A stretch of 64,000 nt of DNA from Spirochaetia bacterium (GTDB taxonomy: Bacteria; Spirochaetota; Spirochaetia; SZUA-6; Bin103), in assembly GCA_965203905.1 (NCBI GenBank), contig CBDBDQ010000005.1:2816001-2880000 (forward strand), written 5' to 3'. The stretch's first letter is position 1. Each line of letters starts with the position of its first letter. Under the pieces are notes generated by a model. It worked only from the letters and a program-made list of their open reading frames with translations. It ran no database searches and was not told the DNA's origin. A program made the position numbers and the translations under genes. Shown one piece after another: positions 6,681 through 38,434 of the stretch.

Positions 6681-9600
6681 ATGCATCGGACCTATACCCT
6701 CCTCCTCAACGACACGATGCGGGCGCACCTGGTCTCGCTTGGACGCCGGGCCAGGCAGCGCCTGCGCGAGAAGCTGGACCTGCTGAAGGAGGGCATGTGG
6801 GACGGCGGCATGCGGGTCAAGAAGCTCAAGGGCAGCGGGCGCCGCGTGTTCGAAGCTCGGCTCAGCCGCGGCGACCGCATCCTGTTCACGCTGGGTCAGC
6901 CGGCCGCGGACAACCCCGACACCAGTGACCGGCTGACCCGCATCTACGTCTGGGGCGTGGAGCGGCACGATGACGTGTCGGCCGCGGCACGCCGCATCGT
7001 GCCCGCAAACGCCCCGTTCCTCGATTTCCAGCCCGACGCCGTGGAAGAGTTGCCGGAGGAGGGATTCGTCGACGACCTCGACCAGGCCTGCTTTTCGCCG
7101 GCCCTCGACCGGCCGGCGCACACGCCGGATCCCGCGGCGCCTCCCGACGCCGGGCCGCAGCGCTGGCTGGTGGTGGATGACGAAGAGTGGCGGCGCCTGC
7201 AGACGGCGCACGCCAGCGACCACGTGGAGTTGTACCTGTTCCTGACCCGCGAGCAGGCGCGCCTGCTGCACAGCGAACCGCCGCTGCTGCTGTCCGGCAC
7301 CGCCGGCAGCGGCAAGACCACCATCGCGGTCTACTACCTGTTGCGCCACCGGGTGCGTCAGCTCACGGTTGCCGCCGGAGCGCCGGCGCCTGCCCCGGAG
7401 CCGCGGCCCGGCGGCGAACGGGCACTGTTTCTCACCTACAGCCCCCACCTGAAGCGGCTGTCGGAGCGCATCTACCGCGGCCTGGTCAGGGCCACCGACC
7501 TGGAGCGTGCGCCGCACGCGGTGCGCTTCGCCACCTTCGGCGAGTTGCTGGCGGAAATCCTCGGCCAGCGCGGTGGGGAGCGCTGGCAGGCGGCGCCGGC
7601 CGGGCTGGCCGAGTTCCACTCCATCTACGGGAATCTGCCACGCGCGGCGCGCCACGACCCGGAGCTGGTGTGGGAGGAGATTCGCGCCATAATAAAGGGC
7701 GCGAAGCCGCCGGTGAGCCGGCGCCGGTTTGCCGAGTTGGCGGCACGCTTCCAGGCCGCCGCAGCGACGCAGCGCGAGCGCGGCGAGCTGGCCGAGTACG
7801 TGGTGCGGCTGGCCAATCTGGAACTCGGCGACAAGCTCGACGCGGTGCGTGAGCGCAGGACCTCGTTCGCGACCCTGGCGAAGTTCGCCGCCGGTCTGCG
7901 CGACGGCGACGCCGCCCGCGGGGAGGAGCAGCGGTTCCTGCTGGACGCCGCCCTGCGCCTGCTGGACAAGCAGAGCGCACGTCTTGCCCAACCATTGCTC
8001 ACCTTGCGCGAGTACCAGGGGCTGGGAGCCAAGCGGGCGCCCAACTTCCCGGTCGATCGGAGCGATGTATACCGCATCGCCGAGTACTACCAGCAGCAAC
8101 TCGAGGCCGCCGCCCGCTACGACGAAATCGACTTGACGCGTGCGGCGCTGGAGTACCTGGAGCAGCACGGCGAGCAGTTCCGCTACGACCTGGTGGTATG
8201 TGACGAGGTGCAGGACTTCACCGACGTGCAGCTTGCCCTGCTGTTCCGCCTGGCCGTCGATCCGCGCCGTACCGTGCTCACCGGCGATCCCAAGCAGATC
8301 ATCAATCCCAGCGGCTTCCGCTGGGAGGAGGTGCGCGCGCGCTACTACGAGCGCGGCCTGCCGGTGCCGGAGGTGATCAACCTCAGCATCAACTTTCGGA
8401 GCGTCGGCAACATCGTCAGCCTGGCCAACAAGCTGCTGGAGCTGAAAGGCAGCCTGATCGGCCTGGGCAGCGGCGAGATCGCCGAGCGCTGGACGTTCCG
8501 GGGGCGCCCGCCGCTGCTGATCGAGGATCTTCCGGAATCCGAACTGCTGCGCACGGTGCGACTCGGGGGCGCCGGGCAGGTGGTGCTGGCACGCACCGAA
8601 CGGGAGCGCGACCGGCTGCGCAACGCGCTGCAGACCGAGTTGGTGTTCACCATCGGCGAAGCCAAGGGGTTGGAGTTCGACGCGGTGCTGCTGTGGCGCT
8701 TCTCGGCGACCGAGGGCGCACCGGCCATCTGGCGCCGCATCGCCTCCGACCGCGTCCGCGGCGACGCCGACACGCCCCACATCCGCCACGAGTTGAATCT
8801 GCTGTACGTGGCGGTGACGCGGGCGCGCAACTCGCTGGTGATCTGGGACGGCGAGCAGGTCAGTCCGATCTGGGGCATCGAAACCCTGGCCGATCAGGTG
8901 TATCGATCGGCCGACGCGACCGCCTTCGAGACCATCTGGCAGCGGGTGTCCACGCCAGCCGAGTGGGAAGCACAGGGCGACTACTTCGCCGAGCGCGAGC
9001 ACTACGCCGCCGCCGAAGAGTGCTACCGCCACGCCCAGGCGGTGGACAAGGAGGATCTGGCACGCGCCCGTCGCTTGCAGCAGGAGGGGGATCACCGTGC
9101 CGCCGCCGCGCTGTTCCTGCGCCACGGGCGCGCCGTGCCGGCAGCCGAGAACCTGGAGCGCGCGGCGGCGTTCCGGGAGGCGGCGCGGGCATGGCGGCGC
9201 GCCGGGAACGAGCAGCACGCCACGGCCAGCGAGGCACGCCACTACGAGTCCGTGGGCAACTACGCCGCCGCGGCCAGGCGCTGGGAGCAGCTCGGCGTCG
9301 ACGAAGGCATCCTGCGCAACTGGGAGCGGGGCCGGGAGTTCGGCAAGCTGGCCCAGTACCACCTGGGGCGCAAAGCCGGCGCCGAGGCGGCCCATTACCT
9401 CAAGCTGGCGGGTGACCACGCGGCGGCGGCGGTGCAGTTCCGACGTGCGGGGCTGCTGGAGCTCGCGGCACAGGAGTTCGAGCAGGCCGGCGACCATCAG
9501 CGCGCTGCGACCCTCTACCGGCGCCTGAAGGACGGCGGTGCGTTGCTGCGCTGTCTGCTCCACGGTGGCGCGTATCACGATGCCGGCGAGGAGTACGAGA

Positions 9601-11006
9601 AGCGCGGCGACCTGGAGAAGGCCGCCGAGTGCTTCCGCCGCTACGCCGAAAGCTCTTCCGAGGCACGCCAGGACCTGGAGCGGCGCCTCGCCAGGATCAC
9701 CCCCAAGCGCCCCGGGATGCGGGCCGCGGTCCGGCTGGTCGCCCTGGGGCGTGTGGGCGAGGCGGCACCCATCTACGCCCGGCGCGGCCACCAGGAACGG
9801 GCCGCCGAGCTGTTCAGCGCGGCCGGGCGCCACGACAATGCGGCGCTCTGCCTGGCGCAGTGCGGCCGCTACCGGGAGGCGGCGCGCGAGGCGGTCCGCG
9901 GCGGCGACGCTCAAGGCGTCAGGATGGCCACCTCCTATCTGGCCGACTACCTTACCAGCGACCGGTCCGCGGCGCTGATTCGGATCGGCGAGCTGAACCG
10001 GACCGCCGGCCGTCTGGTACGCAACTCCGACTACGAGCATGCGCTGGCGCACTATCTCGCCATCGACGAGGTGAGCGGCCACCTCTACCTGCACGAGGTG
10101 ACGACCATATACGCCAAGCTCGGGCGCCACGCGGACGCGATCGGATACGCCCTGGACCGGGGTGAGAGCGACCCGGCGAACGCCTATCTGAACGCCCGCC
10201 CCGACCTGGTGCTGCCGCTCGCCGCGGCGGAGTCCCTGGCACGCGGTTCGGAGCACCGGCAGCCGCTGTCGCAGGAGCTCCGCGCCGGCGTGGTCGGCGT
10301 ACTGCTCAGGCTCCTGCACGGTTGCCTGTTTCGGGGTGCGGAGCCCGACCGCCGCGCGCGCATCGCCGCGCTCCTGGAGGCGTTGCCCTCGGGGTTTGCC
10401 TACACCTCGCGCCTGTCCTCGGAGTTGAGCGACCTGATGATCGACCTGCGTCTCTACCATCTGCTGGAGGCCACCGCGAAGTTGCACCGGTACCGGGAGG
10501 AGGGAACTGCCGAGTTGCGCTACTTCCAGGAACGGTTGGAACGGACGGTAATGGAGGAGCGCGACCGGGAACTGGCGCTCTGCCTGCTGCTGGACAGACC
10601 CGACGCGTACGAAGCGGCGATCGCGGAGATAGCGCCGACGGAGCGCAACGTGCCGCTGTTCGCCGAGAGCAGCACGCGCTATGCGGAAGCGGTGGCGATT
10701 CTGCTGGATTCGGGCGCCACGAGGGACGCCGCCGAAATCTGCAGGCGTCATCGCGACCACGCCCATTGTGGCAGGATCTACGAAGAGTCCGGGGATCAGC
10801 AGCGCGCGGGGCGCGCCTATCGCGACGGCGGGCTGTACGCCGACGCCCACCGTTGCTTTGCGGCCTGCGGCGACGAAGCCGGCACGGCGCGCGTGTACGA
10901 GCGCGAGTTGCGCTTCGAGCAGGCGCTGGCCATCTGGCAGCGGCTCGGCCGGAAACGCGAAGTGGAACGGCTGAGGAAGAAGATGGGCCACAACCTCGCC
11001 AGATGA
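6681..11006 (+). CDS. RelE/ParE-like domain + SF1 (UvrD-type) helicase + TPR-like repeats, copy 1 (intact, 1441 aa)
   Basis: N-terminal VKKLKG..FEARL..RILF..IYVWGV..HDDV; helicase motifs SGTAGSGKTT, DEVQD, GDPKQ, NFRS, AKGLEF, LYVAVTRAR; C-terminal AA..Y/F..AG helical repeats. Confidence 0.9.
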   Translation: MHRTYTLLLNDTMRAHLVSLGRRARQRLREKLDLLKEGMWDGGMRVKKLKGSGRRVFEARLSRGDRILFTLGQPAADNPDTSDRLTRIYVWGVERHDDVSAAARRIVPANAPFLDFQPDAVEELPEEGFVDDLDQACFSPALDRPAHTPDPAAPPDAGPQRWLVVDDEEWRRLQTAHASDHVELYLFLTREQARLLHSEPPLLLSGTAGSGKTTIAVYYLLRHRVRQLTVAAGAPAPAPEPRPGGERALFLTYSPHLKRLSERIYRGLVRATDLERAPHAVRFATFGELLAEILGQRGGERWQAAPAGLAEFHSIYGNLPRAARHDPELVWEEIRAIIKGAKPPVSRRRFAELAARFQAAAATQRERGELAEYVVRLANLELGDKLDAVRERRTSFATLAKFAAGLRDGDAARGEEQRFLLDAALRLLDKQSARLAQPLLTLREYQGLGAKRAPNFPVDRSDVYRIAEYYQQQLEAAARYDEIDLTRAALEYLEQHGEQFRYDLVVCDEVQDFTDVQLALLFRLAVDPRRTVLTGDPKQIINPSGFRWEEVRARYYERGLPVPEVINLSINFRSVGNIVSLANKLLELKGSLIGLGSGEIAERWTFRGRPPLLIEDLPESELLRTVRLGGAGQVVLARTERERDRLRNALQTELVFTIGEAKGLEFDAVLLWRFSATEGAPAIWRRIASDRVRGDADTPHIRHELNLLYVAVTRARNSLVIWDGEQVSPIWGIETLADQVYRSADATAFETIWQRVSTPAEWEAQGDYFAEREHYAAAEECYRHAQAVDKEDLARARRLQQEGDHRAAAALFLRHGRAVPAAENLERAAAFREAARAWRRAGNEQHATASEARHYESVGNYAAAARRWEQLGVDEGILRNWERGREFGKLAQYHLGRKAGAEAAHYLKLAGDHAAAAVQFRRAGLLELAAQEFEQAGDHQRAATLYRRLKDGGALLRCLLHGGAYHDAGEEYEKRGDLEKAAECFRRYAESSSEARQDLERRLARITPKRPGMRAAVRLVALGRVGEAAPIYARRGHQERAAELFSAAGRHDNAALCLAQCGRYREAAREAVRGGDAQGVRMATSYLADYLTSDRSAALIRIGELNRTAGRLVRNSDYEHALAHYLAIDEVSGHLYLHEVTTIYAKLGRHADAIGYALDRGESDPANAYLNARPDLVLPLAAAESLARGSEHRQPLSQELRAGVVGVLLRLLHGCLFRGAEPDRRARIAALLEALPSGFAYTSRLSSELSDLMIDLRLYHLLEATAKLHRYREEGTAELRYFQERLERTVMEERDRELALCLLLDRPDAYEAAIAEIAPTERNVPLFAESSTRYAEAVAILLDSGATRDAAEICRRHRDHAHCGRIYEESGDQQRAGRAYRDGGLYADAHRCFAACGDEAGTARVYERELRFEQALAIWQRLGRKREVERLRKKMGHNLAR

Positions 11007-11010
11007 GGAC

Positions 11011-11078
11011 GGCGCACGAACGCGCTGCCGCGGCGGAGGTCCGGCGCCTCTGGCCCCCAGGTCTACGCGGTGTCGTCG
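11011..11078 (+). pseudogene. Internal relic of a hydantoinase A gene
   Basis: About 59/68 nt match by eye to 12664-12730 (AHERAAEAEVRRLWPEVYVVSS), with one indel. Confidence 0.75.
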
Positions 11079-11190: not shown

Positions 11191-11220
11191 TTGACATTCT
11201 CAGTGAAAGGATGCGACGAT
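11191..11220 (+). promoter_or_regulatory. Putative promoter of the Fic gene
   Basis: TTGACA-18nt-GACGAT with TG extension; AT-rich stretch upstream; GTG start 9 nt downstream. Confidence 0.45.
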
Positions 11221-11229
11221 AGCACACGC

Positions 11230-12102
11230 GTGGCCACTTCCTCTCCTCTCAGAAATCGCATCCAGGCACTGCACCGGGAGTACGCCAGCCTGCGGCCCGG
11301 CAGGGAATCACTCCTGGCGATGATCGACGAGGCGGAGATCCCCGAGAGCGTCTACAACTCCAATGCCATCGAGAACTCCACCCTCACCCTGGAGGAAACC
11401 GAGAAGATCCTGCTGGAGCAGATGCTGTCCCGCAACGTGTCGGTGCGAGAGGTGTTCGAGGCGGTCAACCTGGCGCGCGTCATCGAGTACCAGCGTAAGA
11501 GGGCCGAGGACACGAACCTGGGCAAGGAACGGATCCTGCTGTTGCACCAGATGCTGATCGGAGCGATAGACGACGACAAAGCCGGCCGGTTTCGCCGACG
11601 CGGGGAGTACGTGCGGGTGGGCACCCACATCGCGCCGGCGCCGGAGCAGGTAGAAGGCATGATCGCAGAGACACTGCTGCAGTATGCCAGTGATCTCGAC
11701 TCCTACTTCCTGGACAGGATCGCTCGATTTCACCTGGACTTCGAAGTGATCCATCCCTTTTGCGACGGCAATGGCCGGGTGGGGCGGGTAATCATCAACG
11801 CTCAACTGCAGAAGCTGGGGTTGCCGCCGTTGATCATTCGCAACTCGGAAAAGCAGACCTACTATCGCGCCTTCCGGGAGTACACCGACCGCAAGCGCAC
11901 CGCGACCATGGAGCGGATCCTGGCGCTGGCCCTGCTGGAGTCTCTGCACAAGCGGCGGAGCTATCTCTTGGGGCAACGCATCACTACGCTGTCGGACTAC
12001 ATCAGACAGGAGGGCGAGTCCGCCCCGGCCGTCACCAACGCCGCCCGCCGCCAGACGATTCCAGCCTTTCGCGAAAAGGGAGTGTGGAAGATCGGCCAGT
12101 GA
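11230..12102 (+). CDS. Fic family protein with N-terminal inhibitory motif and C-terminal putative HTH
   Basis: HPFCDGNGRVGR Fic motif; SNAIEN fits the (S/T)xxxE(G/N) inhibitory motif; GTG at 11230 preferred over TTG at 11191. Confidence 0.92.
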   Translation: MATSSPLRNRIQALHREYASLRPGRESLLAMIDEAEIPESVYNSNAIENSTLTLEETEKILLEQMLSRNVSVREVFEAVNLARVIEYQRKRAEDTNLGKERILLLHQMLIGAIDDDKAGRFRRRGEYVRVGTHIAPAPEQVEGMIAETLLQYASDLDSYFLDRIARFHLDFEVIHPFCDGNGRVGRVIINAQLQKLGLPPLIIRNSEKQTYYRAFREYTDRKRTATMERILALALLESLHKRRSYLLGQRITTLSDYIRQEGESAPAVTNAARRQTIPAFREKGVWKIGQ

Positions 12103-12148
12103 TCGCATGGCCATGCAGCAGGATCGTGTGCGCGCTGCAGTGCACGAC

Positions 12149-14257
12149 GTGAGCAACTGGATCACGCGGGTCGCGACCGATGTCGGTGGCACGTTCACCG
12201 ACCTGGTCAGATTCGACATCGATCCCGAGTCGGGCCAGTCGCGCGTGACCTCGGCCAAGACGGCGACCACTCCCCCGGACTTCGAGCGCGGCGTCCTCGA
12301 GGTGCTGCGCAAGGGCGGCGTGCGGCTGAGCGAGATCGACTTTCTCGCCCACGGCACGACCGTCGTGATCAACGCGCTCACCGAGCGCAAGGGGGCGAAG
12401 GTCGGGCTTATCACCACCGAGGGTTTCCGCGACACGCTGGAGATCGCCCGCGGCAACCGGCCCGACCTGTTCAACCTTCACTACCGGAAACCGAAGCCGT
12501 TCGTGCCGCGCTACCTGCGCCGCGAGCTGCCGGGCCGGATGAACTACCGCGGCGCAGAAGTGCAGCCGCTGGACCGGTCCCCGCTGGTGGCGATCGTCGC
12601 GGATTTCCGTGCCGACGGCGTGCAGGCGGTGGCGATCTGCTTCCTGCATTCCTACGCCAACCCGGCACACGAACGCGCCGCCGAGGCGGAGGTGCGGCGG
12701 CTCTGGCCCGAGGTTTACGTGGTGTCGTCGCACCGCGTCGCGCGCGAGTGGCGCGAGTACGAGCGCACCAGCACCACGGTGCTTTCCGCCTTCGTCCAGC
12801 CCACGGCCGAGCGCTACCTGCGTCGCCTGAGCGACGGCCTCGCCGGCTGGGGCTTTGCGGGCAGTCCCTACGTCATGCAGTCCAACGGCGGCATCGACTC
12901 GCTCGAGGCCGCGGCCCGGACGCCGATCACGATGATCGAATCGGGACCATCCTCCGGTGTGTGGGGCGCCGCTCGGCTGGGGGCGCTGATCGGCGACCGG
13001 AACATCATCGCCCTCGACATCGGTGGCACGACGGCGAAGTGCTCGCTCATCGACCGCGGCAATATCAGGATCGTGACCGACTACTGGATCGGGCGGGACG
13101 GCAGGTCGGCGGGCTACCCGGTGATGGTGCCGGTGGTGGACATGGTCGAGATCGGCAACGGCGGCGGTTCGATCGCCTGGGCCGACGACTTCGGGAAGCT
13201 GCACGTAGGACCGCGTTCGGCGGGCGCCGTCCCCGGTCCGGCGGCGTACGGCATGGGCGGCCGGGACGCGACCACCACCGACGCCAATCTCTGGCTGGGA
13301 AGGATCAACCGCGACTACTTCTGCGGCGGTGAGTTGAACGCGGACATGGACGCCGTGGAAGCGGCGCTGCGAGAGGTGGGCGGCCGCCTCGGCCTCGGGC
13401 CCGACCAGGCGGCGGCCGGTATCGTCCGGATCGCCAACAACAACATGGTCAACGCGCTCAAGCTGGTGTCGCTCAACCGCGGGTTCGACCCCCGCGAGTT
13501 CACCCTCGTCGCGTTCGGCGGCGGCGGCGGCATGCACGCGGTCGCGCTCGCCGGCGAGCTCGGCATCTCCAAGGTGGTGATACCGCGGGACGCGGCGGTG
13601 TTCTCGGCGTGGGGAATGATGATGTCGGACCTGCGCCGCGACTACATCGCCACGCGCCTGGTCGACCTGGTCCCGGAAAACGCGGAGGCGATCGAGAACA
13701 CCCTGGTCGAGACCGAGGCGGCGGCACTGACGCAGTTCGGCAGCGAAGGCGTCGCCCCAGAGCGTCTGTCGCTCAGGAGGTTCGGCAAGTTCCGCTACCA
13801 GAACCAGGAACACACCACCGAGGTCGCGCTTGGCGAGAGTGAGGTGACGGAGGACCGCATTCGCGAAATCAGGAGCGCGTTCGAAACGGAATACGAACGT
13901 GAATACACCTACCGCCTGGATGCCCCCGTGGAGATGGTCGGTATCCACGTCACCGCGACGGCACAGGTGGGTCGCGTCGAGATCAAGCGGCAGGAGCTCG
14001 GCCCCGAAAGCGCGCGCGGGGCGCAGAAATCCTCCCGCAAGGTCGACTTCGCGCCGGAAGGAGTGTTCGAGACGGCGATCTACGACGGCAGCAGGCTCAG
14101 GCCGGGCATGCGCTTTTCCGGTCCGGCAATAGTCGAGGATGCGGCCTCGACCGTGGTCGTGCACCGTGGCAACGACGCCGAGGTGGACGGCTTCGGCAAC
14201 GTCGTCATCCACCTCCATGACCCCGTCACGCTCGAAGCCGTCAGGACCGTTCCATGA
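12149..14257 (+). CDS. Hydantoinase A/5-oxoprolinase family subunit
   Basis: DVGGTFTD, HGTTVVINALTERKG, ESGP, DIGGTT, TTTDAN; start at GTG 12149 or ATG 12107. Confidence 0.93.
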   Translation: MSNWITRVATDVGGTFTDLVRFDIDPESGQSRVTSAKTATTPPDFERGVLEVLRKGGVRLSEIDFLAHGTTVVINALTERKGAKVGLITTEGFRDTLEIARGNRPDLFNLHYRKPKPFVPRYLRRELPGRMNYRGAEVQPLDRSPLVAIVADFRADGVQAVAICFLHSYANPAHERAAEAEVRRLWPEVYVVSSHRVAREWREYERTSTTVLSAFVQPTAERYLRRLSDGLAGWGFAGSPYVMQSNGGIDSLEAAARTPITMIESGPSSGVWGAARLGALIGDRNIIALDIGGTTAKCSLIDRGNIRIVTDYWIGRDGRSAGYPVMVPVVDMVEIGNGGGSIAWADDFGKLHVGPRSAGAVPGPAAYGMGGRDATTTDANLWLGRINRDYFCGGELNADMDAVEAALREVGGRLGLGPDQAAAGIVRIANNNMVNALKLVSLNRGFDPREFTLVAFGGGGGMHAVALAGELGISKVVIPRDAAVFSAWGMMMSDLRRDYIATRLVDLVPENAEAIENTLVETEAAALTQFGSEGVAPERLSLRRFGKFRYQNQEHTTEVALGESEVTEDRIREIRSAFETEYEREYTYRLDAPVEMVGIHVTATAQVGRVEIKRQELGPESARGAQKSSRKVDFAPEGVFETAIYDGSRLRPGMRFSGPAIVEDAASTVVVHRGNDAEVDGFGNVVIHLHDPVTLEAVRTVP

Positions 14258-14333
14258 CAACGCGACAGCACGACCCAATCACGTTCGAAATGGTCGAGAG
14301 CCCGCTGCGGGCCGCTGCCGAAAGGACCATCCC

Positions 14334-15998
14334 ATGAAAGCGCGAAAGCATGACCCCATTACGCTTGAGATCATTCAGAACTCGGTGCAGGCGGCGGCCG
14401 ACGAGATGTTCGCGGCGATGCGCAAGACGGCGATGAGCTCGATCATCTACGAGGTGCTCGACATGGGGACCGGCATCATGGACGCGCAGGGAGAGATCGC
14501 GTCATCCGGTGCCGGGATTCCCGCGTTCATCGGCGTGCTCGACAAGTCGGTGAAGTTCATCGTCGCCAGGTTCGACCAGCCCGGCGACATCGAGCCGGGA
14601 GACGTGTTCGCCACCAACGATCCCTACTACGGCGGCGTCACGCACCTCAGCGACATCGTGGTGATGATGCCGGTGTTCCACGGCGGAGAGCTGATCGCCT
14701 GGACCGCCACCATCGCGCACCACTCGGACGTGGGGGGAATGGCGCCGGGGTCGCTGACCGGGGAGGCCACTTCGATTTTCCAGGAGGGCCTGCGGCTACC
14801 GGCGATCAAGCTCATCGCGCGGGGCAGGACCAACGAGCCGGTGATGCAGATCATCAAGGTTAACTCGCGCATGCCGGACGTGCTCGAAGGCGATCTCTGG
14901 GCATCCATCGCGTCGGTACGGGTGGGGGCGAGAAGGATCGAGGCGCTGGCCGGGAAGTACGGCACCGACACCTACACGGCCGCGGTCGATTCGTTCATGG
15001 ACCTCGGCGAGAAGGCGTCCCTGGGTGCGCTCGCGAAGCTGCCCCAGGGCACCTTCGAGCTGGCGGAAGAACAGGACAACGGTCAGGTCTACCACGTCGG
15101 GATTACCATTACCGGGGACCGGTTCACGGTCGATCTGCGCAACAACCCCGACCAGCTCGACGGACCGCTGAACACCAGCCGCGACGGTGTCATGGTTGCC
15201 GCGCAGATGATCTTCAAGTCGCTGACCGATCCCTGGTCTCCGGCAACTGGAGGATCGTTCCGTCCGGTCGAGCTGTTGACGCGCAAGGGTTCGGTGTTCG
15301 ACGCCAGCGAGCCGGCCGCGCTCGGGTTCTACTACGAGATCGAGCTGAGGGTGTACGACCTGATGTGGCGGTGCCTGGCGAACCAAATGCCCGAGCGCCT
15401 GGCGGCAGGGCACTTCGCGTCGATCTGCGGTACCTTCATCGGCGGCATCCATCCCGACACCGGCCGCCAGTACACGGTGATCGAGCCGCAGCTCGGCGGC
15501 TGGGGAGCGGGCATGGGCGGGGACGGCAACACCGCCATGTTCAGCGGATTCCACGGCGAGACCTACAACTGCCCCGCGGAGATCACCGAGGCGCGCAACG
15601 GACTGATCGTCGACCGGATGACGTTGAACACGGAACCGGGCGGCGAGGGCAGGCATGCCGGAGGCCGCGGCATCGTGCTGGATTACCGGGTCCGGTCCGA
15701 CAACGGCTTTCTGACCGCGGGCTACACCCGCTCGAAGTTTCCGCCCTGGGGCGTGGACGGCGGGCGCGACGGTTCGCCCAACTACATCGAGTTCATCCCC
15801 AAGGAGGGCGAACGGCAACGGTTCGCCGAGGTGTCCGGACTGGCCACCCGGAAGGACGACCTGATCCGCGTGTGCACCGGCAGCGGCGGCGGCTGCGGCG
15901 ACCCGCGCGAGCGCGACCCCGAGCTGGTCCGCGCCGACGTCCGCAACGGCCTGCTCTCACCGCAGCGCGCGCGGGAGGTGTACGGCGTCGAACCCTGA
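14334..15998 (+). CDS. Hydantoinase B/5-oxoprolinase family subunit
   Basis: DPITLEII, NDPYYGGVTHLSD, HHSDVGG, FQEGLRLP, GGGCGDP. Confidence 0.93.
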   Translation: MKARKHDPITLEIIQNSVQAAADEMFAAMRKTAMSSIIYEVLDMGTGIMDAQGEIASSGAGIPAFIGVLDKSVKFIVARFDQPGDIEPGDVFATNDPYYGGVTHLSDIVVMMPVFHGGELIAWTATIAHHSDVGGMAPGSLTGEATSIFQEGLRLPAIKLIARGRTNEPVMQIIKVNSRMPDVLEGDLWASIASVRVGARRIEALAGKYGTDTYTAAVDSFMDLGEKASLGALAKLPQGTFELAEEQDNGQVYHVGITITGDRFTVDLRNNPDQLDGPLNTSRDGVMVAAQMIFKSLTDPWSPATGGSFRPVELLTRKGSVFDASEPAALGFYYEIELRVYDLMWRCLANQMPERLAAGHFASICGTFIGGIHPDTGRQYTVIEPQLGGWGAGMGGDGNTAMFSGFHGETYNCPAEITEARNGLIVDRMTLNTEPGGEGRHAGGRGIVLDYRVRSDNGFLTAGYTRSKFPPWGVDGGRDGSPNYIEFIPKEGERQRFAEVSGLATRKDDLIRVCTGSGGGCGDPRERDPELVRADVRNGLLSPQRAREVYGVEP

Positions 15999-30435: not shown

Positions 30436-30438
30436 ATG

Positions 30439-30498
30439 ACAGAACAGAGCGTTGCGCGGCGACGCGGCAAACCGCGCGTGTGAACACCGTCGTTAGCT
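30439..30498 (+). other. Degenerate integron attC-like recombination site
   Basis: 60 bp ACAGAAC-AGAGCGTTG...CGCGG-CAAA-CCGCG...TGAACACCGTC-GTTAGCT: AAC...GTTRRRY-like ends around an imperfect hairpin. Confidence 0.55.
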
Positions 30499-30502
30499 GG
30501 CT

Positions 30503-30715: not shown

Positions 30716-30721
30716 GGCGAT

Positions 30722-31173
30722 GTGGCGACTCAAGTCGCGTTCGCTACCAACGCACGGCAGAGACGATATGCCCCCCGTGGCAAGAACCAGTTGCACGCCA
30801 TCTTCGAGAAGCATTTCAGTGATTTCTGCGATCAGTACCAGGATCGCTTTGGCCAGAAATACGGGAGGTATCACCTACCACGGATAGAGGGAGTCGGCGA
30901 ACGATTTGGCAAGTGCGGCGACTACCGATACGGGGTCGCCCGTATCCGGTGCACCAATCCCGAGTGTGCTCACGACCACTTTCGGCCGTTCAGCTGCAAA
31001 GGCTTCTACCTCTGCCCGTCATGTAGTCAGAAACGAACGCTTCTATTTGCCGAGCACCTCACTGAGGAGGTGCTTCTGAACTTGCCGCATCGCCAGTTCG
31101 TGTTCGCCCTGCCGAAGGCGCTGCGCATCTTCTTCCGCCACGACCGCCGACTCTTTGGCCATGTCTCGCGGCT
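30722..31173 (+). mobile_element. IS91-family (rolling-circle) transposase N-terminal zinc-binding fragment
   Basis: KCGD..GVARIRC...C..PFSCKGFYLCPSCSQKR...PHRQFVFALPKALR; HUH and Tyr motifs absent; in frame with copy 3. Confidence 0.88.
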
Positions 31174-33819
31174 GCGCGGCCTGACGGTGCCGGAGGTGAT
31201 CAACCTCAGCATCAACTTCCGCAGCGTCGGCAACATCGTCAGCCTGGCCAACAGGCTGCTGGAGCTGAAGGGGCGCCTGATCGGCCTGGGCGGCGGCGAG
31301 ATCGCCGAGCGCTGGACCTTCCGCGGACGGCCGCCGCTGCTGGTCGACGGCCTCCCCGAGCGCGATCTGCTGCGCACCGTGCGCCTGGGTGGCGCCGGGC
31401 AGGTGGTGCTGGCACGCAGCGAGCGGGAACGCGACCGGCTGCGCGCGGCGCTGAAGACCGAGCTGGTGTTCACCGTGGGCGAGGCCAAGGGGCTGGAGTT
31501 CGATGCCGTGCTGCTGTGGCGCTTCCCGGCGGCGGAAGGCGCGCCCGCCATCTGGCGGCGCATCGCCACCGACCGGGTGCGGGGAGATGCCGACACACCC
31601 CACATCCGCCACGAGCTGAACCTGCTGTACGTGGCGGTGACGCGGGCGCGCAACACGCTGGTGATCTGGGACGGCGAGCAGGTCAGCTCGATCTGGAGCA
31701 TCGACTCGCTGGCCGACCAGGTGTACCGGTCGGCCGACGGCACCGCCTTCGAGACCCTCTGGCAGCGGGTCTCCACCCCCGACGAGTGGGAAGCCCAGGG
31801 CGACTACTTTGCCGAGCGCGAGCACTACGCCGCCGCCGAAGAGTGCTACCGCCACGCCCAGGCAATGGGCAAAGAGGATCTGGCCCGCGCCCGCCGCCTG
31901 CAGCAGGAGGGGGATCATCGCACCGCGGCCGACCTGTTCGCCCGCCATGGCCACGCCGAGCCGGCAGCCGAGAATCTGGAATGCGCGGACGCGTTTCGCG
32001 AGGCGGCGCGGGCGTGGCGCCGCGCGGGTCGGGAGATGCGAGCCGTGGCCAGCGAGGCGCGTCACTACGAGTCCGCCGGCAACTACGCCGCCGCGGCCAG
32101 GCGTTGGCAGCAGCTCGGCGACGACGACGGCGTACTGCGCAACTGGGAGCTGGGGCGGGACTTCGGCAAGCTGGCGCAGTACCACCTGGAGCGCAACGCC
32201 CGCGGCGAGGCGGCGCGCTACCTGCAGCTCGCGGGCGACCACGCGGAGGCGGCGGTGCAGTTCCGCCGTGCCGGGCTGCTGGAGCTCGCGGCGCAGGAGT
32301 TCGAGCAGGCCGGCGACCACGCGCGCGCCGCGACGCTTTACCGGCGCCTGCAGGACGGCGCCGGGTTGCTACGCTGCCTGCTCCACGACGGCGCGTTCCA
32401 CGACGCGGGCCTGGAATACGAACGGCGCGGCGACCTGGAGAAGGCGGCCGACTGTTTCCGCCGCTACGCGGAAGGCTCGCCCGAGGCACGGCAGGATCTG
32501 GAGCGGCGTCTCGCCAAGATCACGCCCAAGCGTCCGGGGATGCGGGCCGCCATCCGGCTGGTCGCCCTGGGCCGGTTGGACGAGGCGGCGCCCATCTACG
32601 CGCGGCGCGGCCACCATGAACGTGCCGCCGAGCTGTTCAGCGAGGCCGGGCGGCCCGATCACGCGGCGCTCTGCCTGGCCGAGTGCGGCCGTTATCGGGA
32701 GGCGGCGGACGAGGTCCTGCGCGGCGGCGGCGGCCATGCCATCAGGGTGGCCACCTCGTATCTGGTCGACTACCTGACCAGCGACCGGTCCGCGGCGCTG
32801 AATCGGATCGGCGAGCTGAACCGGACCGCCGGTCGCCTGGTGCGCAGTGCCGCCGGCGAGCAGGCGCTGGCGTACTATCTCGCCATCGACGAGGTTGGCG
32901 GCCACCTCTACCTGCACGAGGTGACCACCCTGTACGCAAAGCTCGGGCGCCACGCGGAGGCGATCGGCTACGCTCTGGACCGTGATGAAGGCGGCAACGC
33001 GGACGCCTACCTGGAAGCGCGGCCCGAGCTGGTGCTGACGCTCGACGAGGTGGAATCCCTGGCACGCGGGACCAAGCTCCGACCGCCGCTGTGGCAGGAG
33101 CACCGCGCCGAGGTCATGGGCGTGCTGTTCCGGCTCCTGCACGGATGCCTGTTTCGGGGCGCGGAACCCGATCGTCGTCCCCGGATTGCCGCGCTCATGG
33201 ATGAGGTGTCCTCGACACCGTCTACATCACGCGCCTGTCCCCGGAGTTGACCGACCTGATGATCGACCTGCGGCTCTACGATCTGATCCAGACCACCGTG
33301 GGGCTGTGGGAGTACCGTGAGGACGAGGCCGGCGACGAATACGATTACTTCGAGGAGCGGTTGGAGCGGACGGTGATGGAGGAGCGCGACCCGGAGCTGG
33401 CGCTCTGCCTGCTGCTGGATGAACCGGGGGCGTTCGAAGCGGCGATCGCGCAAGTTGAGCCGACAGCGCGCAATGTGGCGCTGTTCGCGCGCAGCAGCAC
33501 GCGCTATCCGGAAGCGGCGGCGGTGCTGGTGGAGTCGGGCGCCACGCAGCGCGCCGCCGAGGTTTGCATCCGCCATCGCGACTACGCCCGCGGCGGCAGG
33601 ATCTACGATGAATCCGGCGATCTGCAGCGCGCGGGCCGCGCCTATCGCGACGGCAGGTTGTACGCCGACGCCCACCGCTGCTTTGCGGCCTGCGGCGACG
33701 AGGCCGGCGCGGCGCGCGTGTTCGAGCGTGAGTTACGCTTGGGGGAGGCGTTGGCCATCTGGAAACGGCTCGGCCGGAAGCGCGAAGTGGACCGGGTGCG
33801 CAAGAAGATGGGGCGTTAG
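31174..33819 (+). pseudogene. RelE-helicase-TPR protein copy 3, C-terminal two-thirds
   Basis: Colinear with copy 1 from RGL.VPEVINLSINFRS to RKKMG; one base missing near 33214 splits it into ORFs ending 33250 and 33819. Confidence 0.9.
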
Positions 33820-33997: not shown

Positions 33998-36900
33998 ATG
34001 GTACGAAACTACACCCTGCTTCTGCACGACGCGGTGCGCGCCCACGTGGTTTCCCTGGACGTGCGGGCGAAGCAGCGCCTGCGTGAGAAGCTGGAGTTTC
34101 TGCAGGAGGGGTTGTGGGACGCCGGGGTACGGGTCAAGAAGCTCAGGGGCAGCGGCCGCGCCGTGTTCGAGGCGCGCCTCAGCCGTGGCGACCGCATCCT
34201 GTTCACCCTGGGCGAGCCGCCGGCCGCGGACGCGAGCGGCAATGGCGCCGGCGCTACCCGCATCTACGTGTGGGGGGTGGTCAAGCACGACGACGTGAGC
34301 GCCGCCGCCGAGCGCCGCATCGTGCCCGCCAACGCGCCGTTTCTCGACTTCGAGCCGGCTCTGGTGGAGGAGTTGCCGCACCTCGATGCCGGCGACCTGG
34401 GCGGCGACTATTTCTCGCCCGCGCTCGACCAGCCGCTCGCGGCGCCGGGCGCCGATGCGCCGACCGACGCGGGACCGCAGCGCTGGCTGGTGGTGGACGA
34501 GGAGGAGTGGCGCCGGCTGCAGGCGGCCCACCCGGGCGACCACCTGGAGCTGTACCTGTTTCTGACCCGCGAGCAGGCGCGGCTGCTGCACGGCGAGCCG
34601 CCGTTGCTGCTCTCCGGCACCGCCGGCAGCGGCAAGACCACGATCGCGGTCTACTTCCTCCTGCGCCACCGGGTGCGCCAGCTTGCCGCCGCGCCCGACG
34701 GCGCCGGCGAGCCGGCCGGCGGTCGGAGCATGCGCCCTGCAACCGCGGCCCGTGGTGGCGGTGCGCGCGGCCAGCTCACGCAGGGCGCTGAGGACGGGAC
34801 AGCCGTCGTGGCGAGTGCCGAGCGGGCGCTGTTTCTCACCTGCAGCCCGCACTTGAAGCGGTTTTCGGAGCGCATCTATCGCGGGCTGGTGACGGCCACC
34901 GAGTTGGAAGACGCGGCACAGGCGGTGCGCTTCGCCACCCTCGGCGAGCTGCTCGGCGAGATCATGGGCCGCGCCGGACGCCCACGGTGGCAGGCGCCGC
35001 CAGTCGGGCTGGCCGAGTTTCGCGCCATTTTCCGCAACCACCCGGGGGCGGCCCGCTACGACGCGGAGCTGGTGTGGGAGGAGATCCGCTCCATCATCAA
35101 GGGCGCCAAGCCGCCGGTGAGCCGGCGCCGGTTCGCGGAGCTGGCGGCTCGTTTCGCGGCCGCGCAGGCGGCGCAGCGCGAGCGCAACGAGCTGGCAGAG
35201 TACGTGGTGCGGCTGGGAAACCTGGAGCCGGGCGCCAGGCTCGACGGCGCGCGCGGGCGCAAGACCGGCTTCGGCTCGCTGCAGGAATTCGCCGCCAGCC
35301 TGCGTGACGGCGCGACCGTGCGGCGTGACGAGCAACTGTTTCTGCTGCAGGCGGCCCTGCGCCTGCTGGAACGGCAGTCCACGCGTCTCGACCAGCCCCT
35401 GCTCACCCTGCGCGAGTACGAGGGGCTGGGGCACAAGCGGGCGCCCAACTTCCCGTTCGACCGGCGTGAAATCCACCGCATCGCCGAGTACTACCAGGAG
35501 CGGCTCGAGGCTGACGCCCGGTTCGACGAGATCGACCAGACCCGTGCCGCCCTGCAGTACCTGGAGCGCCACGGCGACCAGTTCCGCTACGACCTGGTGG
35601 TGTGCGACGAGGTACAGGACTTCACCGACATGCAGCTCGCCCTGCTGTTCCGCCTCGCCGGCGACCCGCGCCGCACCGTGCTCACCGGGGACCCCAAGCA
35701 GATCATCAATCCGAGCGGCTTTCGCTGGGAGGAGGTCCGAGCGCGCTACTACGAGCGCGGCCTGCAGGTGCCGGAGGTGATCAATCTCAGCATCAACTTC
35801 CGCAGCGTGGGCAACATCGTCAGCCTGGCCAACAGTCTGCTGCTGCTGAAACGCAGCCTGGTCGGGCTGGCCAGCGGTGAGATCACCGAGCGCTGGACCT
35901 TCCGCGGCCGGCCCCCGCTGCTGGTCGAGGGCCTCGCCGAGCGCGAGCTGCTGGCCACGGTGCGCCGCGGGGGTGCTGGACAGGTGGTGCTGGTGCGCAC
36001 CGAGCGGGAGCGCGATCGCCTGCGCAAGGCGCTGCAGAGCGAATTGGTGTTCACGGTGGGCGAGGCCAAGGGGCTGGAGTTCGACTCGATTCTGCTGTGG
36101 CGCTTCCCGGAGGCGGAGGGGGCGCCAGCCATCTGGCGGCGCATCGCCGCGGACCAGGTGCGTGGCGCCGCCGACACGCCGCACGTCCGCCACGAGCTGA
36201 ACCTGCTGTACGTGGCGGTGACGCGGGCACGCAACACCCTGGTGATCTGGGACGGGGAGGAGGTGAGCCCGATCTGGGGCATCGAGACGCTCGCCGACCA
36301 CGTGTACCGGTCCGCCGACGGCGCCGCCGTCGATACCCTGTGGCGACGCGTTTCGACTCCTGCCGAGTGGCAGGCACAGGGCGACTACTTCATGGAACGG
36401 GAACACTTTGCAGCCGCCGAAGAGTGCTACCGCAACGCCCAGGCGGTGGTCGAGGAGGAGCTGGCGCGCGCCCACCGGCTGGAGCGGGAGGGCGATCACC
36501 AGGCGGCAGCCGGGCTGTTCATCCGCCACGGGCGGGTGGCGCGGGCGGCCGAGGGCCTGGAGCGGGCCGGCGAGCACCTGGAGGCGGCGCGCATCTGGCG
36601 CGGTGCCGGCAACGAGATGCGTGGCGTCGCCTGCGAGGCGAAGCACTACGAAGCGGCCGGCGACCATGCCGCCGCCGCCGCCCGCTGGCAGCAGCTGGGG
36701 GTGGAGGAGGGGATGCTGCGCAACTGGGAGCGGGGCCGCGAGTTCCGCAAGCTGGCCGGGTTCTACCTGGAGCGGGAGGTTCCCGGGGAGGCGGCGCGCT
36801 ACCTCAAGCTGTGCGGCGACCACGCGCGGGCGGCGGAGCAGTTTCGCCGCGCCGGGATGCTGAGGTCGTCGGCCGCGGAGTACGAGGTGGCCGGCGACCA

Positions 36901-38434
36901 CGAGCGCGCCGCGGTGCTCTACCGGCGGCTGGGCGACAACGACGGGCTGCTGCGCAGCCTGTTCCACGCCGGCCTGTTCCACGATGCCGGGCTGCTGTAC
37001 GAGAAGCGGGGCGACCTGGAACGCGCCACCGACTGCTTCCGCCGCTATGCCGAGAGTTCGCCGCAGGCGCGTCAGGACCTGGAGCGGCGGCTCGAGGGCA
37101 TTGTCCAGAAGCATCCGGGGATGCGGGCCGCGATCCGCATGGTCGCCCTGGGCCAGCCTGAACGCGCCGCGCCGATCTACTTCCGCAACGGCCATCCGGA
37201 GCGTGCCGCGGAACTGTTCCGGGCCGCCGGACAGCGCCAGTCGGCCGCGCTGTGCCTGGCCGAGTGCGGGAGCCACCGGGAGGCCGCCCGCGAGGTCGCT
37301 GCCGGCGGCAGCGACGAGGATGTCCAGGAGGCCGCCAAGTACCTCGTCACCTACCTGGCCAGCGGCGACCCGGAGAAGCAGGACCGGGCCGGTGATCTGC
37401 TGCGTACCGGGGGCCGGCTGTTGCGCTCCGGGAACTATCAGCTGGCGCTGGCGCACTACCTGGCGGTGGGTTCCGCGCGCGGCGGCGTCTACATGCAGGA
37501 AGTGACCGCCGCCTACGCCGGGCTGGAGCGTCACGCCCTGGCCCTGGAGTATTGTCTGCACCTCAACCGCGGCGCCAGTGCAGCCGCCTACCTGGACGCG
37601 CGTCCCGAACTGGTGCTGGCGCCGTCGGAGGTGGAATCGCTGGTGCGCGGCCCCGGAGAGGGTACGGGCCCCGAAGGGCGTACGCGGCTCGAGAGTGAGG
37701 ACGAGGCCATCGAGGGTGTGCTGTTTCGGCTCATGCACGGCTGCCTGTTTCGCGGTACGGCGCCTGACCGCCGGCAGCGGATGGCCGCGCTGCTGCGCTT
37801 GTTGCCGGCCCACTACGGCCATGCCTGCCCGCTGTTCGTCGAGCTGAGTGACCTCATCGTCGAGCTGCGCCGCTACGACGTGATCATCGACATCCACACC
37901 TCGCGGATGGTCCGGCAGCCACCGGCGGACGAATTGCATGACCATCTCGTAAGCCGCCTGCAACGGACGGCAGAGGAACAGCAGGATCGGGATCTGGCGC
38001 TGTGCACGCTGCTGGACGATCTCCCGGCGTTCGACGCCGGGCTGAACGAACTCGAGGTGAGCGAGCGCAACGTGGAGCTGTTCGCGCACAGTGGGCGGCA
38101 CTATGCCGCGGCCGTAGCGTTTCTGCTGGAGCAGGGCGCTGCCGACAGGGCAGCGTCGGTGTGCATGAGCCAGGACGACTACGCCGGTGCCGGGAAGATC
38201 TACGAGCAGGCCGGGGACTTGGCCCTGGCGGGGCGCGTCTATCGCGACGGCATGTGTTTCGCCGACGCGTTACGCTGTTTCGACGCAATCGGCGACGAGG
38301 TGGAAACGGCGCGCGTCTACGAGCGCGAGCGACGCTACGACGAAGCGTTGGCGATCTGGCAGCGGCGCGGGTGCGAGCAGGACGTCGAGCGGGTACGCAG
38401 CGAGATGGCGCGGCGCAGCGGCGACGCCTTTTGA
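33998..38434 (+). CDS. RelE/ParE-like + SF1 helicase + TPR-like protein, copy 4 (intact, 1478 aa)
   Basis: Same motif set as copy 1; more diverged repeat region. Confidence 0.9.
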   Translation: MVRNYTLLLHDAVRAHVVSLDVRAKQRLREKLEFLQEGLWDAGVRVKKLRGSGRAVFEARLSRGDRILFTLGEPPAADASGNGAGATRIYVWGVVKHDDVSAAAERRIVPANAPFLDFEPALVEELPHLDAGDLGGDYFSPALDQPLAAPGADAPTDAGPQRWLVVDEEEWRRLQAAHPGDHLELYLFLTREQARLLHGEPPLLLSGTAGSGKTTIAVYFLLRHRVRQLAAAPDGAGEPAGGRSMRPATAARGGGARGQLTQGAEDGTAVVASAERALFLTCSPHLKRFSERIYRGLVTATELEDAAQAVRFATLGELLGEIMGRAGRPRWQAPPVGLAEFRAIFRNHPGAARYDAELVWEEIRSIIKGAKPPVSRRRFAELAARFAAAQAAQRERNELAEYVVRLGNLEPGARLDGARGRKTGFGSLQEFAASLRDGATVRRDEQLFLLQAALRLLERQSTRLDQPLLTLREYEGLGHKRAPNFPFDRREIHRIAEYYQERLEADARFDEIDQTRAALQYLERHGDQFRYDLVVCDEVQDFTDMQLALLFRLAGDPRRTVLTGDPKQIINPSGFRWEEVRARYYERGLQVPEVINLSINFRSVGNIVSLANSLLLLKRSLVGLASGEITERWTFRGRPPLLVEGLAERELLATVRRGGAGQVVLVRTERERDRLRKALQSELVFTVGEAKGLEFDSILLWRFPEAEGAPAIWRRIAADQVRGAADTPHVRHELNLLYVAVTRARNTLVIWDGEEVSPIWGIETLADHVYRSADGAAVDTLWRRVSTPAEWQAQGDYFMEREHFAAAEECYRNAQAVVEEELARAHRLEREGDHQAAAGLFIRHGRVARAAEGLERAGEHLEAARIWRGAGNEMRGVACEAKHYEAAGDHAAAAARWQQLGVEEGMLRNWERGREFRKLAGFYLEREVPGEAARYLKLCGDHARAAEQFRRAGMLRSSAAEYEVAGDHERAAVLYRRLGDNDGLLRSLFHAGLFHDAGLLYEKRGDLERATDCFRRYAESSPQARQDLERRLEGIVQKHPGMRAAIRMVALGQPERAAPIYFRNGHPERAAELFRAAGQRQSAALCLAECGSHREAAREVAAGGSDEDVQEAAKYLVTYLASGDPEKQDRAGDLLRTGGRLLRSGNYQLALAHYLAVGSARGGVYMQEVTAAYAGLERHALALEYCLHLNRGASAAAYLDARPELVLAPSEVESLVRGPGEGTGPEGRTRLESEDEAIEGVLFRLMHGCLFRGTAPDRRQRMAALLRLLPAHYGHACPLFVELSDLIVELRRYDVIIDIHTSRMVRQPPADELHDHLVSRLQRTAEEQQDRDLALCTLLDDLPAFDAGLNELEVSERNVELFAHSGRHYAAAVAFLLEQGAADRAASVCMSQDDYAGAGKIYEQAGDLALAGRVYRDGMCFADALRCFDAIGDEVETARVYERERRYDEALAIWQRRGCEQDVERVRSEMARRSGDAF

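Follow-up and report, generated by a model that had tools for sequence, protein, structure and literature searches.

The window considered here is a 64,000-nucleotide stretch of the genome of a Spirochaetia bacterium (NCBI GenBank assembly GCA_965203905.1, contig CBDBDQ010000005.1, positions 2,816,001 to 2,880,000). On its contig of 7.8 Mb it occupies 2.82-2.88 Mb; the genome measures 7.99 Mb in 5 contigs. The G+C content of the window is about 70%. The region occurs in runs labelled sponge, coral or biofilm metagenomes. It carries a cluster of related genes, designated c1, c2 and c4, which are members of one uncharacterised family of single-chain proteins of ~1400 residues consisting of an N-terminal head, a superfamily 1 (SF1) helicase and a solenoid. 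The anatomy and evolutionary history of the copies are described here with high confidence.

The copies were located by tblastn of c1, an open reading frame (ORF) of 1441 residues, against the window, and by a blastn self-comparison of the window. With c1 as query, tblastn finds four segments, all on the forward strand. The first is c1 itself (6681-11003, 100% identity). Segment 2 (20555-21703) corresponds to c1 residues 1-386 at 86% identity, and segment 3 (31175-33214) to residues 558-1237 at 83%, continuing in another frame at 33169-33813 (residues 1218-1436, 69%). The last segment, c4, spans 33998-38407 and corresponds to residues 1-1435 at 67% identity. No further copies were found in the 7.99 Mb genome, in which six of six matches fall inside the window. 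A preliminary description of this DNA had recognised four co-oriented segments representing at least three genes; the segments are indeed there, but segments 2 and 3 are the two parts of one broken gene, c2. The tally is two intact genes (c1 and c4) and one pseudogene (c2).

Intact c1 occupies 6681-11006 on the forward strand and is defined by its ORF, Pfam matches and motifs. Its head, with a predicted RelE/ParE fold (AlphaFold2, Foldseek and VIA-align), covers residues 1-110 (6681-7010). An SF1 (UvrD/Rep-like) helicase core follows at residues ~191-760 (7251-8960; Pfam, NCBIfam and motifs), with a ratio of nonsynonymous to synonymous divergence (dN/dS) of 0.24 between c1 and c4. The remainder, residues ~761-1441 (8961-11003), is a solenoid of alpha-helices resembling tetratricopeptide repeats (TPRs) according to AlphaFold2 and Foldseek, and includes a distal fast-evolving stretch at residues 1051-1330 (9831-10670) delimited by identity windows and dN/dS. 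The second intact gene, c4, is a paralog of 1478 residues at 33998-38434 (forward strand), placed by trees in clade b, the older paralog clade, and supported by its ORF and Pfam matches. The pseudogene c2 is recognised by similarity to c1 and is split, also on the forward strand, into a 5' half (c2N, 20555-21709, about c1 residues 1-386) that ends in a stop at the break and a 3' half (c2C, 31175-33819, about c1 residues 561-1441) with a -1 frameshift.

These are old, diverged genes rather than dosage duplicates, as had been proposed: synonymous divergence (dS) is 0.64 between c1 and c4 and about 0.35 between c1 and c2. The linker after Walker A also differs in length, with 33 residues in c1 and c2 and 61 in c4.

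Domain architecture

The SF1 UvrD-like helicase core is complete in c1 and c4. Pfam places UvrD-helicase, AAA_19, UvrD_C and UvrD_C_2 above cut-off, and both proteins contain every one of the seven sequence signatures that were sought. The signatures of motifs I-VI, named by our own assignment, start at c1 residues 206, 507, 535, 571, 660 and 710, with equivalent places in c4. The likeness to UvrD, Rep and PcrA lies in these signatures and in the UvrD-helicase and UvrD_C matches. In contrast to those helicases, the window proteins carry an additional head and tail and remain far under the NCBIfam equivalog cut-offs, scoring 15-49 bits against UvrD, PcrA, Rep, RecB, HelD and AddA models with cut-offs of 419-1168. 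PADLOC gives only partial matches to GajB and RTasHel cores. The GajB models match parts of the core with E-values of 1e-11 to 1e-7, but they cover stretches of only 60-130 residues, and here too the head and tail are additional. No GajA partner occurs among the 25 PADLOC families listed for 109 neighbouring ORFs at 63 loci of the protein family (the neighbours in the window were scanned with Pfam only). A NACHT or NB-ARC module of the STAND type (signal transduction ATPases with numerous domains) was not found, Pfam giving helicase and AAA families only; one AAA_16 match in c2N, at 17 bits, falls under its cut-off of 32.6. A protein language-model atlas returns UvrD-helicase clusters only. 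In Pfam, PADLOC and NCBIfam, the curated libraries searched, no family spans the whole protein and only the helicase core is named.

The tail of ~680 residues is predicted to be a TPR-like alpha-solenoid of antiparallel helix pairs. An AlphaFold2 model of residues 731-1441 has a mean predicted local distance difference test (pLDDT) score of 92.6 and is all helical, with 49 helices listed, mostly of ~10 residues. Its irregular part, model residues ~443-600 (c1 residues ~1173-1330), lies inside the fast-evolving stretch. Individual TPR matches in the tail are all under the Pfam cut-off. Foldseek retrieves the TPR arrays of IFT-A, Ctr9, SKI3 and OGT with E-values of 3e-7 to 4e-4, those of SKI3, Ctr9 and IFT-A being 3e-7 to 4e-5, and with TM-scores of 0.1-0.2; at such scores the likeness to SKI3, Ctr9 and IFT-A is that of a generic solenoid only. 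SKI3 (of the SKI complex), Ctr9 and IFT-A are TPR scaffolds paired with helicases; unlike the window proteins, they belong to eukaryotic multi-subunit complexes.

The head, residues 1-110, is predicted to adopt a RelE/ParE fold, with homology unproven. AlphaFold2 was run on residues 1-175 with an alignment of 38 rows, and the model (mean pLDDT 75.8) has the order strand, two helices, four strands, helix. It shows a compact fold of a strand, two helices, an antiparallel sheet of three to four strands and a C-terminal helix. The top Foldseek matches are RelE, RelE-RelB, RelBE2, YoeB and Cami1, with probabilities of 0.80-0.99 over the top ten and of 0.97-0.99 for RelE, YoeB and Cami1, at E-values of only about 1e-2. 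In a VIA-align search of 48,161 representative chains, toxins of the RelE/ParE type fill ranks 1-25 (Z 4.3-7.8) except for Txp40 at rank 22. In the second-look run they fill ranks 1-42 (Z 5.0-7.9), again with Txp40, now at rank 42, as the one row labelled otherwise, after which Z falls to 3.5. The matches span whole toxin chains, with 77-112 aligned residues at a root-mean-square deviation of 2.2-4.0 A. This full-domain coverage and the clean step in Z make the structural match credible.

Across phyla the head is 38-71% identical to that of c1. Fourteen residues are invariant in 43 heads (L8, L35, G38, K48, E58, R66, F69, T70, G72, Y89, W91, H96, F113 and F116), and K47 and R60 are nearly so. 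The Glu, Arg and His of this set are reminiscent of the catalytic residues of YoeB/RelE-type RNases and may be their equivalents. The resemblance to RelE/ParE toxins has its limits. Whereas the predicted fold matches whole toxin chains, the head has no sequence-profile similarity to them, has no antitoxin gene and sits at the N-terminus of a helicase of 1440 residues. A phmmer search of residues 1-170 against the PDB gave chance-level rows only (E 0.38 or worse). No antitoxin was seen beside c1 among ORFs of at least 80 residues, a limit below which a smaller one would be missed; the upstream ORF encodes a solute-binding protein of 641 residues. Structurally, the head comes closest to the RelE domain of Cami1, which according to PDB titles was solved on the 70S ribosome. 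Cami1, a CARF-RelE fusion (PDB 8phb and 8phj), likewise has a RelE-fold domain fused to a larger regulatory body without a paired antitoxin.

History of the copies

Separate maximum-likelihood trees were built from the N-terminal and the C-terminal columns, with support from the SH-like approximate likelihood ratio test (SH-aLRT). Each tree has 33 rows: c1, c4, 29 rows from genomes and a single fragment each of c2 and of the relative G008. Partial matches of G024, G026 and G038 were excluded, as were the remaining G008 fragments. Both c2 fragments are sister to c1 (path 0.27 and 0.24, SH-aLRT 92 and 95), and the fragmentary G008 comes next after c1/c2 in both trees. Their dS to c1 is alike as well, at 0.34-0.38. 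Segments 2 and 3 are thus the halves of one gene, c2.

Within the genus, the sequences fall into three clades. Clade b unites c4 with G003, G001b, G004b, G006b and G007b (support 100 in the C-terminal tree), clade a comprises G001a, G004c, G006a and G007a, and the third group contains c1, c2, G008, G005, G009 and G010. Five further genomes of the genus carry orthologs of c4, so that most of the paralogy is older than this genome; only the c1/c2 duplication is recent and local. Relatives carry one to three copies, and in G001 and G007 two copies lie more than 1 Mb apart. In three relatives, the gene that precedes clade-b members is 91-95% identical to the solute-binding gene upstream of c1. On the other side, a gene of 514 residues without a Pfam match lies downstream of c4 (38445-39992, reverse strand), and its homologs (66-91% identity) adjoin members of all three clades in five relatives. 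The flank pattern would fit an old tandem pair whose members came apart in some lineages at a later time.

The family includes forms without the distal tail. Two clade-b ORFs, L018 in G001 and L019 in G004, have 1214-1218 residues, end at about c1 residue 1133 and have no distal tail. Some database proteins of 1210-1218 residues, with 79% query coverage, look like the same tail-less form.

Decay of the third copy

The 5' half of c2 is 86-87% identical to c1 in protein sequence. Its similarity stops at about 21702-21706 and is followed by a stop codon. Segment 3 begins as abruptly, at 31175, within an ORF that starts with 150 residues of an IS91-type transposase. Codons 387-560, which encode helicase motifs II and III, are missing from c2. 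In their place is an insert of 9.5 kb (21707-31174), bounded by insertion sequences (IS) and low in G+C.

Repeated mobile-element sequence abuts both insert junctions. On the left, an IS end fragment (21700-22360, reverse strand) encodes a C-terminal piece of a transposase and is identified by a 583 bp match to an element terminus. These first 583 bp of the insert are 84-88% identical to the terminus of an element of 2091 bp, of which two full copies, 100% identical to each other, exist elsewhere in the genome. Read by eye, the transposase is a candidate for the IS4/IS1634 type. On the right, a zinc-finger fragment of an IS91-type transposase (30722-31171, forward strand; Pfam Zn_Tnp_IS91, E 6.9e-13) is fused in frame to c2C. 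The last 159-171 bp of the insert recur at two other genomic places with 93-94% identity. The IS91 fragment looks recombinant, because only its residues 92/99-150 match other places in the genome. The zinc-finger fragment and the 3' half of c2 together form an open frame of 842 residues (30722-33250), recorded as the called protein P0089.

Between these ends lies a cargo (23300-31003, forward strand; Pfam and G+C) that encodes an SBP_bac_5 protein, two permeases and a sulfatase, together with non-coding DNA. Its G+C content is 42-55% over 23.3-31.1 kb compared with ~70% for the genome. Given this low G+C and the mobile-element fragments on both flanks, the island looks foreign and recently acquired. 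The family-5 solute-binding protein of the cargo shares 211 of 641 residues with the native one at 4693-6618.

One could ask whether the copies are strain variants stitched together by misassembly, and this had been named as a point to check. The assembly is of the metagenome type with an estimated contamination of 7.9%, and G+C falls abruptly within the region. Against this, the copies differ by 13-33% in protein and stand in separate clades with orthologs elsewhere, and the ends of the insert are repeated IS sequence. Moreover, contigs from two other studies run across the left junction between c2 and the insert with 0 mismatches (X1 record 1, 21517-22120; X17 record 25, 21517-22027). Contigs of short-read runs are too fragmented to span the whole region. 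At the right junction, 31174, there is no bridging contig among those listed, which is uninformative, as are the uncovered parts. An assembly artefact is nevertheless extremely improbable. The insert ends and the junction evidence lead to the conclusion that c2 was destroyed by mobile-element events and not by assembly.

The -1 frameshift of c2C, near 33203-33216, is polymorphic. An extra base after 33216 is carried in X17 (depth 14.5/14.5) and X1 (16.1/16.1), and is not carried in X15 (0/12.8) and X16 (0/6.37), two runs of another study. By our reading of the frames, this base would keep the c2 frame open, so the frameshift is a later, strain-level step of decay in a gene that the insert had already broken. 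From the head through the linker and helicase to the proximal repeats, the c2 fragments have a dN/dS of 0.14-0.25 to c1, and c2 was therefore under selection for most of its history. In sum, c2 arose as the younger duplicate of c1 and stood in tandem ahead of c4. IS elements then brought the foreign island, destroying c2 with the loss of its codons 387-560, and a 1-nucleotide frameshift followed in this strain.

Divergence and selection along the gene

Sliding-window identity bears out that divergence is not uniform along the gene. In 60-residue windows, c1 and c4 are 0.80-0.95 identical over the helicase motifs and 0.33-0.59 over residues 1051-1320; in 40-residue windows, the distal stretch (residues ~1051-1330) gives 0.23-0.57. 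The rate of evolution in the tail is 2-3 times that of the motor. An earlier impression that the RelE-like and helicase parts are nearly invariant does not hold for the former, where identity is 0.72-0.77 between c1 and c4 and 0.80-0.84 between c1 and c2. For the helicase it holds only near the motifs, c1-c4 identity being 0.62-0.68 in the insert regions at residues 271-330 and 361-450. The distal peptides quoted as examples are present at c1 residues 1074-1105 and c4 residues 1103-1134, with 12 of 32 residues in common. The equivalent c2 peptide has 24 of 32 residues as in c1, in keeping with the statement that the third segment is closer to the first.

The c1-c4 profile in 40-residue windows was compared with the profiles of orthologs from clade b (6), clade a (4), clade c (4) and a sister genus (14, for the most part single-copy), and with those of three distant outgroups. 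The correlation is high throughout (Spearman rho 0.75-0.90). Since orthologs show the same profile, including those of the mostly single-copy sister genus, the fast tail is a property of the whole family and not a product of the cluster.

Regional dN/dS was estimated by the pairwise Nei-Gojobori method with bootstrap. The distal stretch (residues 1051-1330) gives 0.21-0.83 in 11 comparisons and the helicase 0.11-0.27, the distal value being the higher in all ten pairs that have both. Upper confidence bounds exceed 1 in three of the 11 distal comparisons (1.09, 1.01 and 1.09), and no lower bound exceeds 0.57. The distal c1-c4 value is 0.64 (confidence interval 0.48-0.90). Values between genomes, 0.83 for G009-G010 and 0.68 for c1-G005, are as high as this within-genome one. 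A parsimony count on a tree of 14 sequences of the genus, excluding the c2 and G008 fragments, gives replacement/synonymous ratios of 0.68 (distal stretch) and 0.28 (helicase). By this count, a nominal replacement excess (p<0.1) is found at 3 of 280 distal codons and a deficit at 60.

Is the tail DIVERSIFYING? Three results argue, as far as such comparisons go, for weaker constraint over paralog-specific diversification. Weaker constraint across the family, in orthologs as much as in paralogs, accounts for the faster divergence of the tail. The genes c1 and c4 are old paralogs under purifying selection. The c1-c4 dS is 0.27-1.22 per 60-codon window and fairly even along the gene, so the conserved parts were not simply homogenised.

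Gene conversion was examined by a three-way scan of site patterns. The pattern c1=c2 leads in every window, with 15-32 of 40 sites, and over all sites there is a mild excess of c2=c4 (241) over c1=c4 (179). The c2=c4 pattern equals c1=c2 in the windows at residues 53-109 and 607-658 and comes within 1-2 sites of it across residues 561-738. This may reflect limited exchange between tandem neighbours or differences in rate.

The preliminary description had interpreted the cluster as a diversifying repertoire of receptors that recalls the clusters of nucleotide-binding leucine-rich repeat (NLR) genes. In such a repertoire, sensor tails would be driven apart by positive selection or recombination, and every copy would come to recognise another invader. 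STAND/NLR-type defence proteins such as Avs and bNACHT consist of an effector, an NTPase and a TPR sensor, and the order of toxin-fold head, NTPase and repeat tail seen here does echo that layout of effector, NTPase and sensor. The family shares with them the three-part order, a single gene without a conserved partner, a faster repeat end and, in some genomes, several copies. It differs in that its NTPase is a helicase and not a NACHT or NB-ARC module, and in that no positive selection was detected. Beyond the effector-NTPase-repeat layout, a repertoire of this kind would agree with the co-orientation of the copies, two of them in tandem, and with the tail as their fastest part (c1-c4 identity 0.23-0.57 over residues 1081-1320). 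Single windows reach a dN/dS near 1, with 1.00 at residues 1261-1320 and 0.81 at residues 1081-1140, and upper bounds above 1 were noted for three of the 11 distal comparisons.

Nevertheless, such a repertoire is improbable. Single-copy orthologs show the same profile, distal dN/dS is never clearly above 1 (no lower bound passes 0.57), and nominally positive distal codons number 3 of 280 against 60 negative ones, so the proposal of a repeat sensor under positive selection finds no support in these measures, whose power is low. The cluster contains two live copies and a decaying one, relatives have one to three, and c4 is older than this genome. Even between phyla the distal tail can be aligned, at an overall identity of 30-40%, as with L108 and L109, which align to c1 residues 7-1435 and 7-1436. 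The STAND module that would be expected is not there. With the profile shared by orthologs, no positive selection detected and two live genes, the comparison to a diversifying NLR-like repertoire is weakly supported.

Distribution and genomic context

The whole protein has 250 database matches at E<=0.001 among 8000 scored, and the best 120 of them include full-length relatives with 38-43% identity. Among the matches listed, no names occur other than 'hypothetical', 'TPR repeat protein' and 'superfamily I DNA/RNA helicase'. With the head alone as query, there are matches to 161 cluster representatives of 1.84 billion. The best 150 of these are mostly the N-termini of proteins of ~1000-1600 residues, and the rest are shorter proteins, of which many are probably fragments.

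In a pattern-seeded scan that took one genome per species, 82 of 246 candidate stretches were confirmed and 80 loci were kept; the scan depends on three peptide patterns and is not a census. The loci include members from metagenome-assembled genomes (MAGs) labelled Spirochaetia/Spirochaetota, Desulfobacterota and relatives, Neomarinimicrobiota, Ignavibacteria/Bacteroidota, Aminicenantes/Acidobacteriota, Calditrichota, KSB1, Delongbacteria and Clostridia. The protein family is present in at least nine other named lineages at 30-50% identity, with a length that stays at ~1400 residues across phyla and with two to three copies in a few unrelated MAGs. Homologs also occur in two cultured bacteria, Acanthopleuribacter pedis and Sulfidibacter corallicola. 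Closer to the window, the protein family is present in 21 of 23 genomes of the bacterium's own taxonomic family and in 6 of 17 from the rest of the order. In an even sample of the phylum, it is found in 8 of 400 other genomes, six of the eight in one taxonomic family, and the three largest taxonomic families of the sample have none (0/50, 0/75 and 0/38).

There is no conserved neighbour, the largest cluster of flanking ORFs occurring at 8 of the 80 loci. At six loci (L095-L098, L106 and L110), an ORF of ~190-217 residues lies directly upstream on the same strand. These belong to Aminicenantes, Acidobacteriota and Deferrimicrobium MAGs, and the ORF is the sole lineage-specific candidate partner seen.

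Possible functions

The protein may be a self-contained device for surveillance or conflict, a tentative reading to which we assign somewhat less than an even chance. The solenoid would bind a target or scaffold, and the SF1 motor would use ATP to engage or track nucleic acid, or would act as an ATP-driven switch. The RelE-fold head would be the output, most plausibly through RNA cleavage that stops translation, and the paralogs would differ in what the tail recognises. Counted in favour of a conflict role are the presence of a toxin-type fold in one chain with an NTPase and a repeat array, the lack of a conserved neighbour, the patchy spread, the MAGs with multiple copies, the natural forms without the distal tail and the structural match of the head to the ribosome-bound RelE domain of Cami1. 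Taken jointly, the anatomy, the history and this much weaker mechanism form a reading that is reasonably probable.

A more specific possibility, which we consider unlikely, is an undescribed class of single-chain immune or abortive-infection proteins in which an SF1 helicase replaces the STAND NTPase. In such a class, the tail would sense an invader protein or a complex of nucleic acid and protein, the motor would license activation, and the RelE-fold head would cut RNA and thereby halt translation. The genes c1 and c4 would then be two specificities kept together, and c2 a discarded third.

Several observations weigh against a surveillance or conflict device with a toxin-type head. All VIA-align Z scores of the head are below 8, in a range that the tool itself calls common. 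Pfam searches of the head and tail at E-values up to 10 gave nothing above cut-off, and a genome search with PF05016 does not list the c1, c2 and c4 genes. A profile of the head compared with 19 ParE/RelE toxins of related genomes gave an hhalign probability of 0.8%. For the 43-head profile the PDB yields a single match, with a marginal E-value of 0.004, to the N-terminal domain of a McrB-type GTPase subunit. For these last two reasons the head is called 'RelE/ParE-fold, homology unproven'. The McrB match raises the thought that the head is a nucleic-acid reader, as is the DNA-binding N-terminal domain of McrB, and that the whole protein is a restriction-like or remodelling motor without a built-in nuclease. 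The match, to entries titled 'GTPase subunit of restriction endonuclease' (6p0f, E 0.004; 6ut5, E 0.03), covers profile positions 47-118 and is the only one that the profile finds in the PDB. However, its E-value is marginal, neither 6p0f nor 6ut5 is among the best 50 rows of either VIA-align search, and the predicted order of strands and helices fits RelE/ParE, which leaves a McrB-like reader very improbable.

The remaining points against a conflict device come from context and selection. At 63 distant loci, the Pfam families seen most often in the 109 nearest ORFs are those of TonB receptors (6-7), patatin (4) and DsbD (3). Matches to defence models in these neighbours are few, namely pAgo/SIR2 (2), mad2 (2), a type I methylase (1) and a ZorD/DpdE-like protein (1). 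This context speaks weakly against a defence island. The selection tests are crude and low in power, and a handful of selected sites would be missed. Near-universal retention in the taxonomic family, conserved synteny and a dN/dS of ~0.2-0.3 fit a housekeeping role equally well.

Such a role could be that of a quality-control factor for RNA or for DNA-protein complexes, a ribosome- or polymerase-associated helicase with an endonuclease head and with subfunctionalised paralogs, whose logic would be comparable to that of a helicase with a TPR scaffold acting on stalled complexes. Presence in 21 of the 23 genomes with conserved flanks would agree with this, as would strong purifying selection on the head and motor, the constant length of ~1400 residues across phyla and neighbours that are mostly housekeeping genes. 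The tail resembles the TPR scaffolds of SKI3, Ctr9 and IFT, and there is a weak NCBIfam similarity to HelD, at 22-24 bits far under cut-off. A general housekeeping factor is harder to reconcile with 8 of 400 other genomes of the phylum and none in the three largest taxonomic families sampled, with a scattered occurrence over unrelated phyla, with the loss of one copy to IS insertion without replacement and with truncated natural forms. We regard this explanation as rather doubtful.

A full-text literature search found no description of a fusion of RelE-like, UvrD-like helicase and TPR parts. A term search of the article PMC7159879 gave no mention of RelE, UvrD or SF1, and its supplements could list such architectures. 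The paralog cluster itself is ordinary, with two old paralogs and a third killed by IS elements. It is the uncharacterised protein family, which joins a toxin-type fold to a complete helicase and a long solenoid, that merits experiment. Should the head prove to be an active RNase under the control of the motor and tail, a helicase-based design would be added to the immune proteins built from effector, NTPase and sensor. The two cultured carriers would make the family testable.

Neighbouring genes and repeats

A gene of the Fic/DOC family (11191-12102; Pfam E 5.8e-19) lies directly downstream of c1; it is not found beside the homologs in 31 related loci. It is followed at 12107-16821 by a pair of hydantoinase genes, A and B, and an Asp/Glu/hydantoin racemase gene, the hydantoinase names having been read from the translations. 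The hydantoinase and racemase genes stand between the solute-binding gene and the permease genes of an apparent single transporter operon, and c1 and the Fic gene separate the binding protein of that transporter from the hydantoinase genes. Two direct repeats were noted. One, of 69 bp and 87% identity (11010-11078 and 12663-12730), stands after the c1 stop and again in the region of the next gene, and the other, of 64 bp and 89% identity, lies at 17708-17855.

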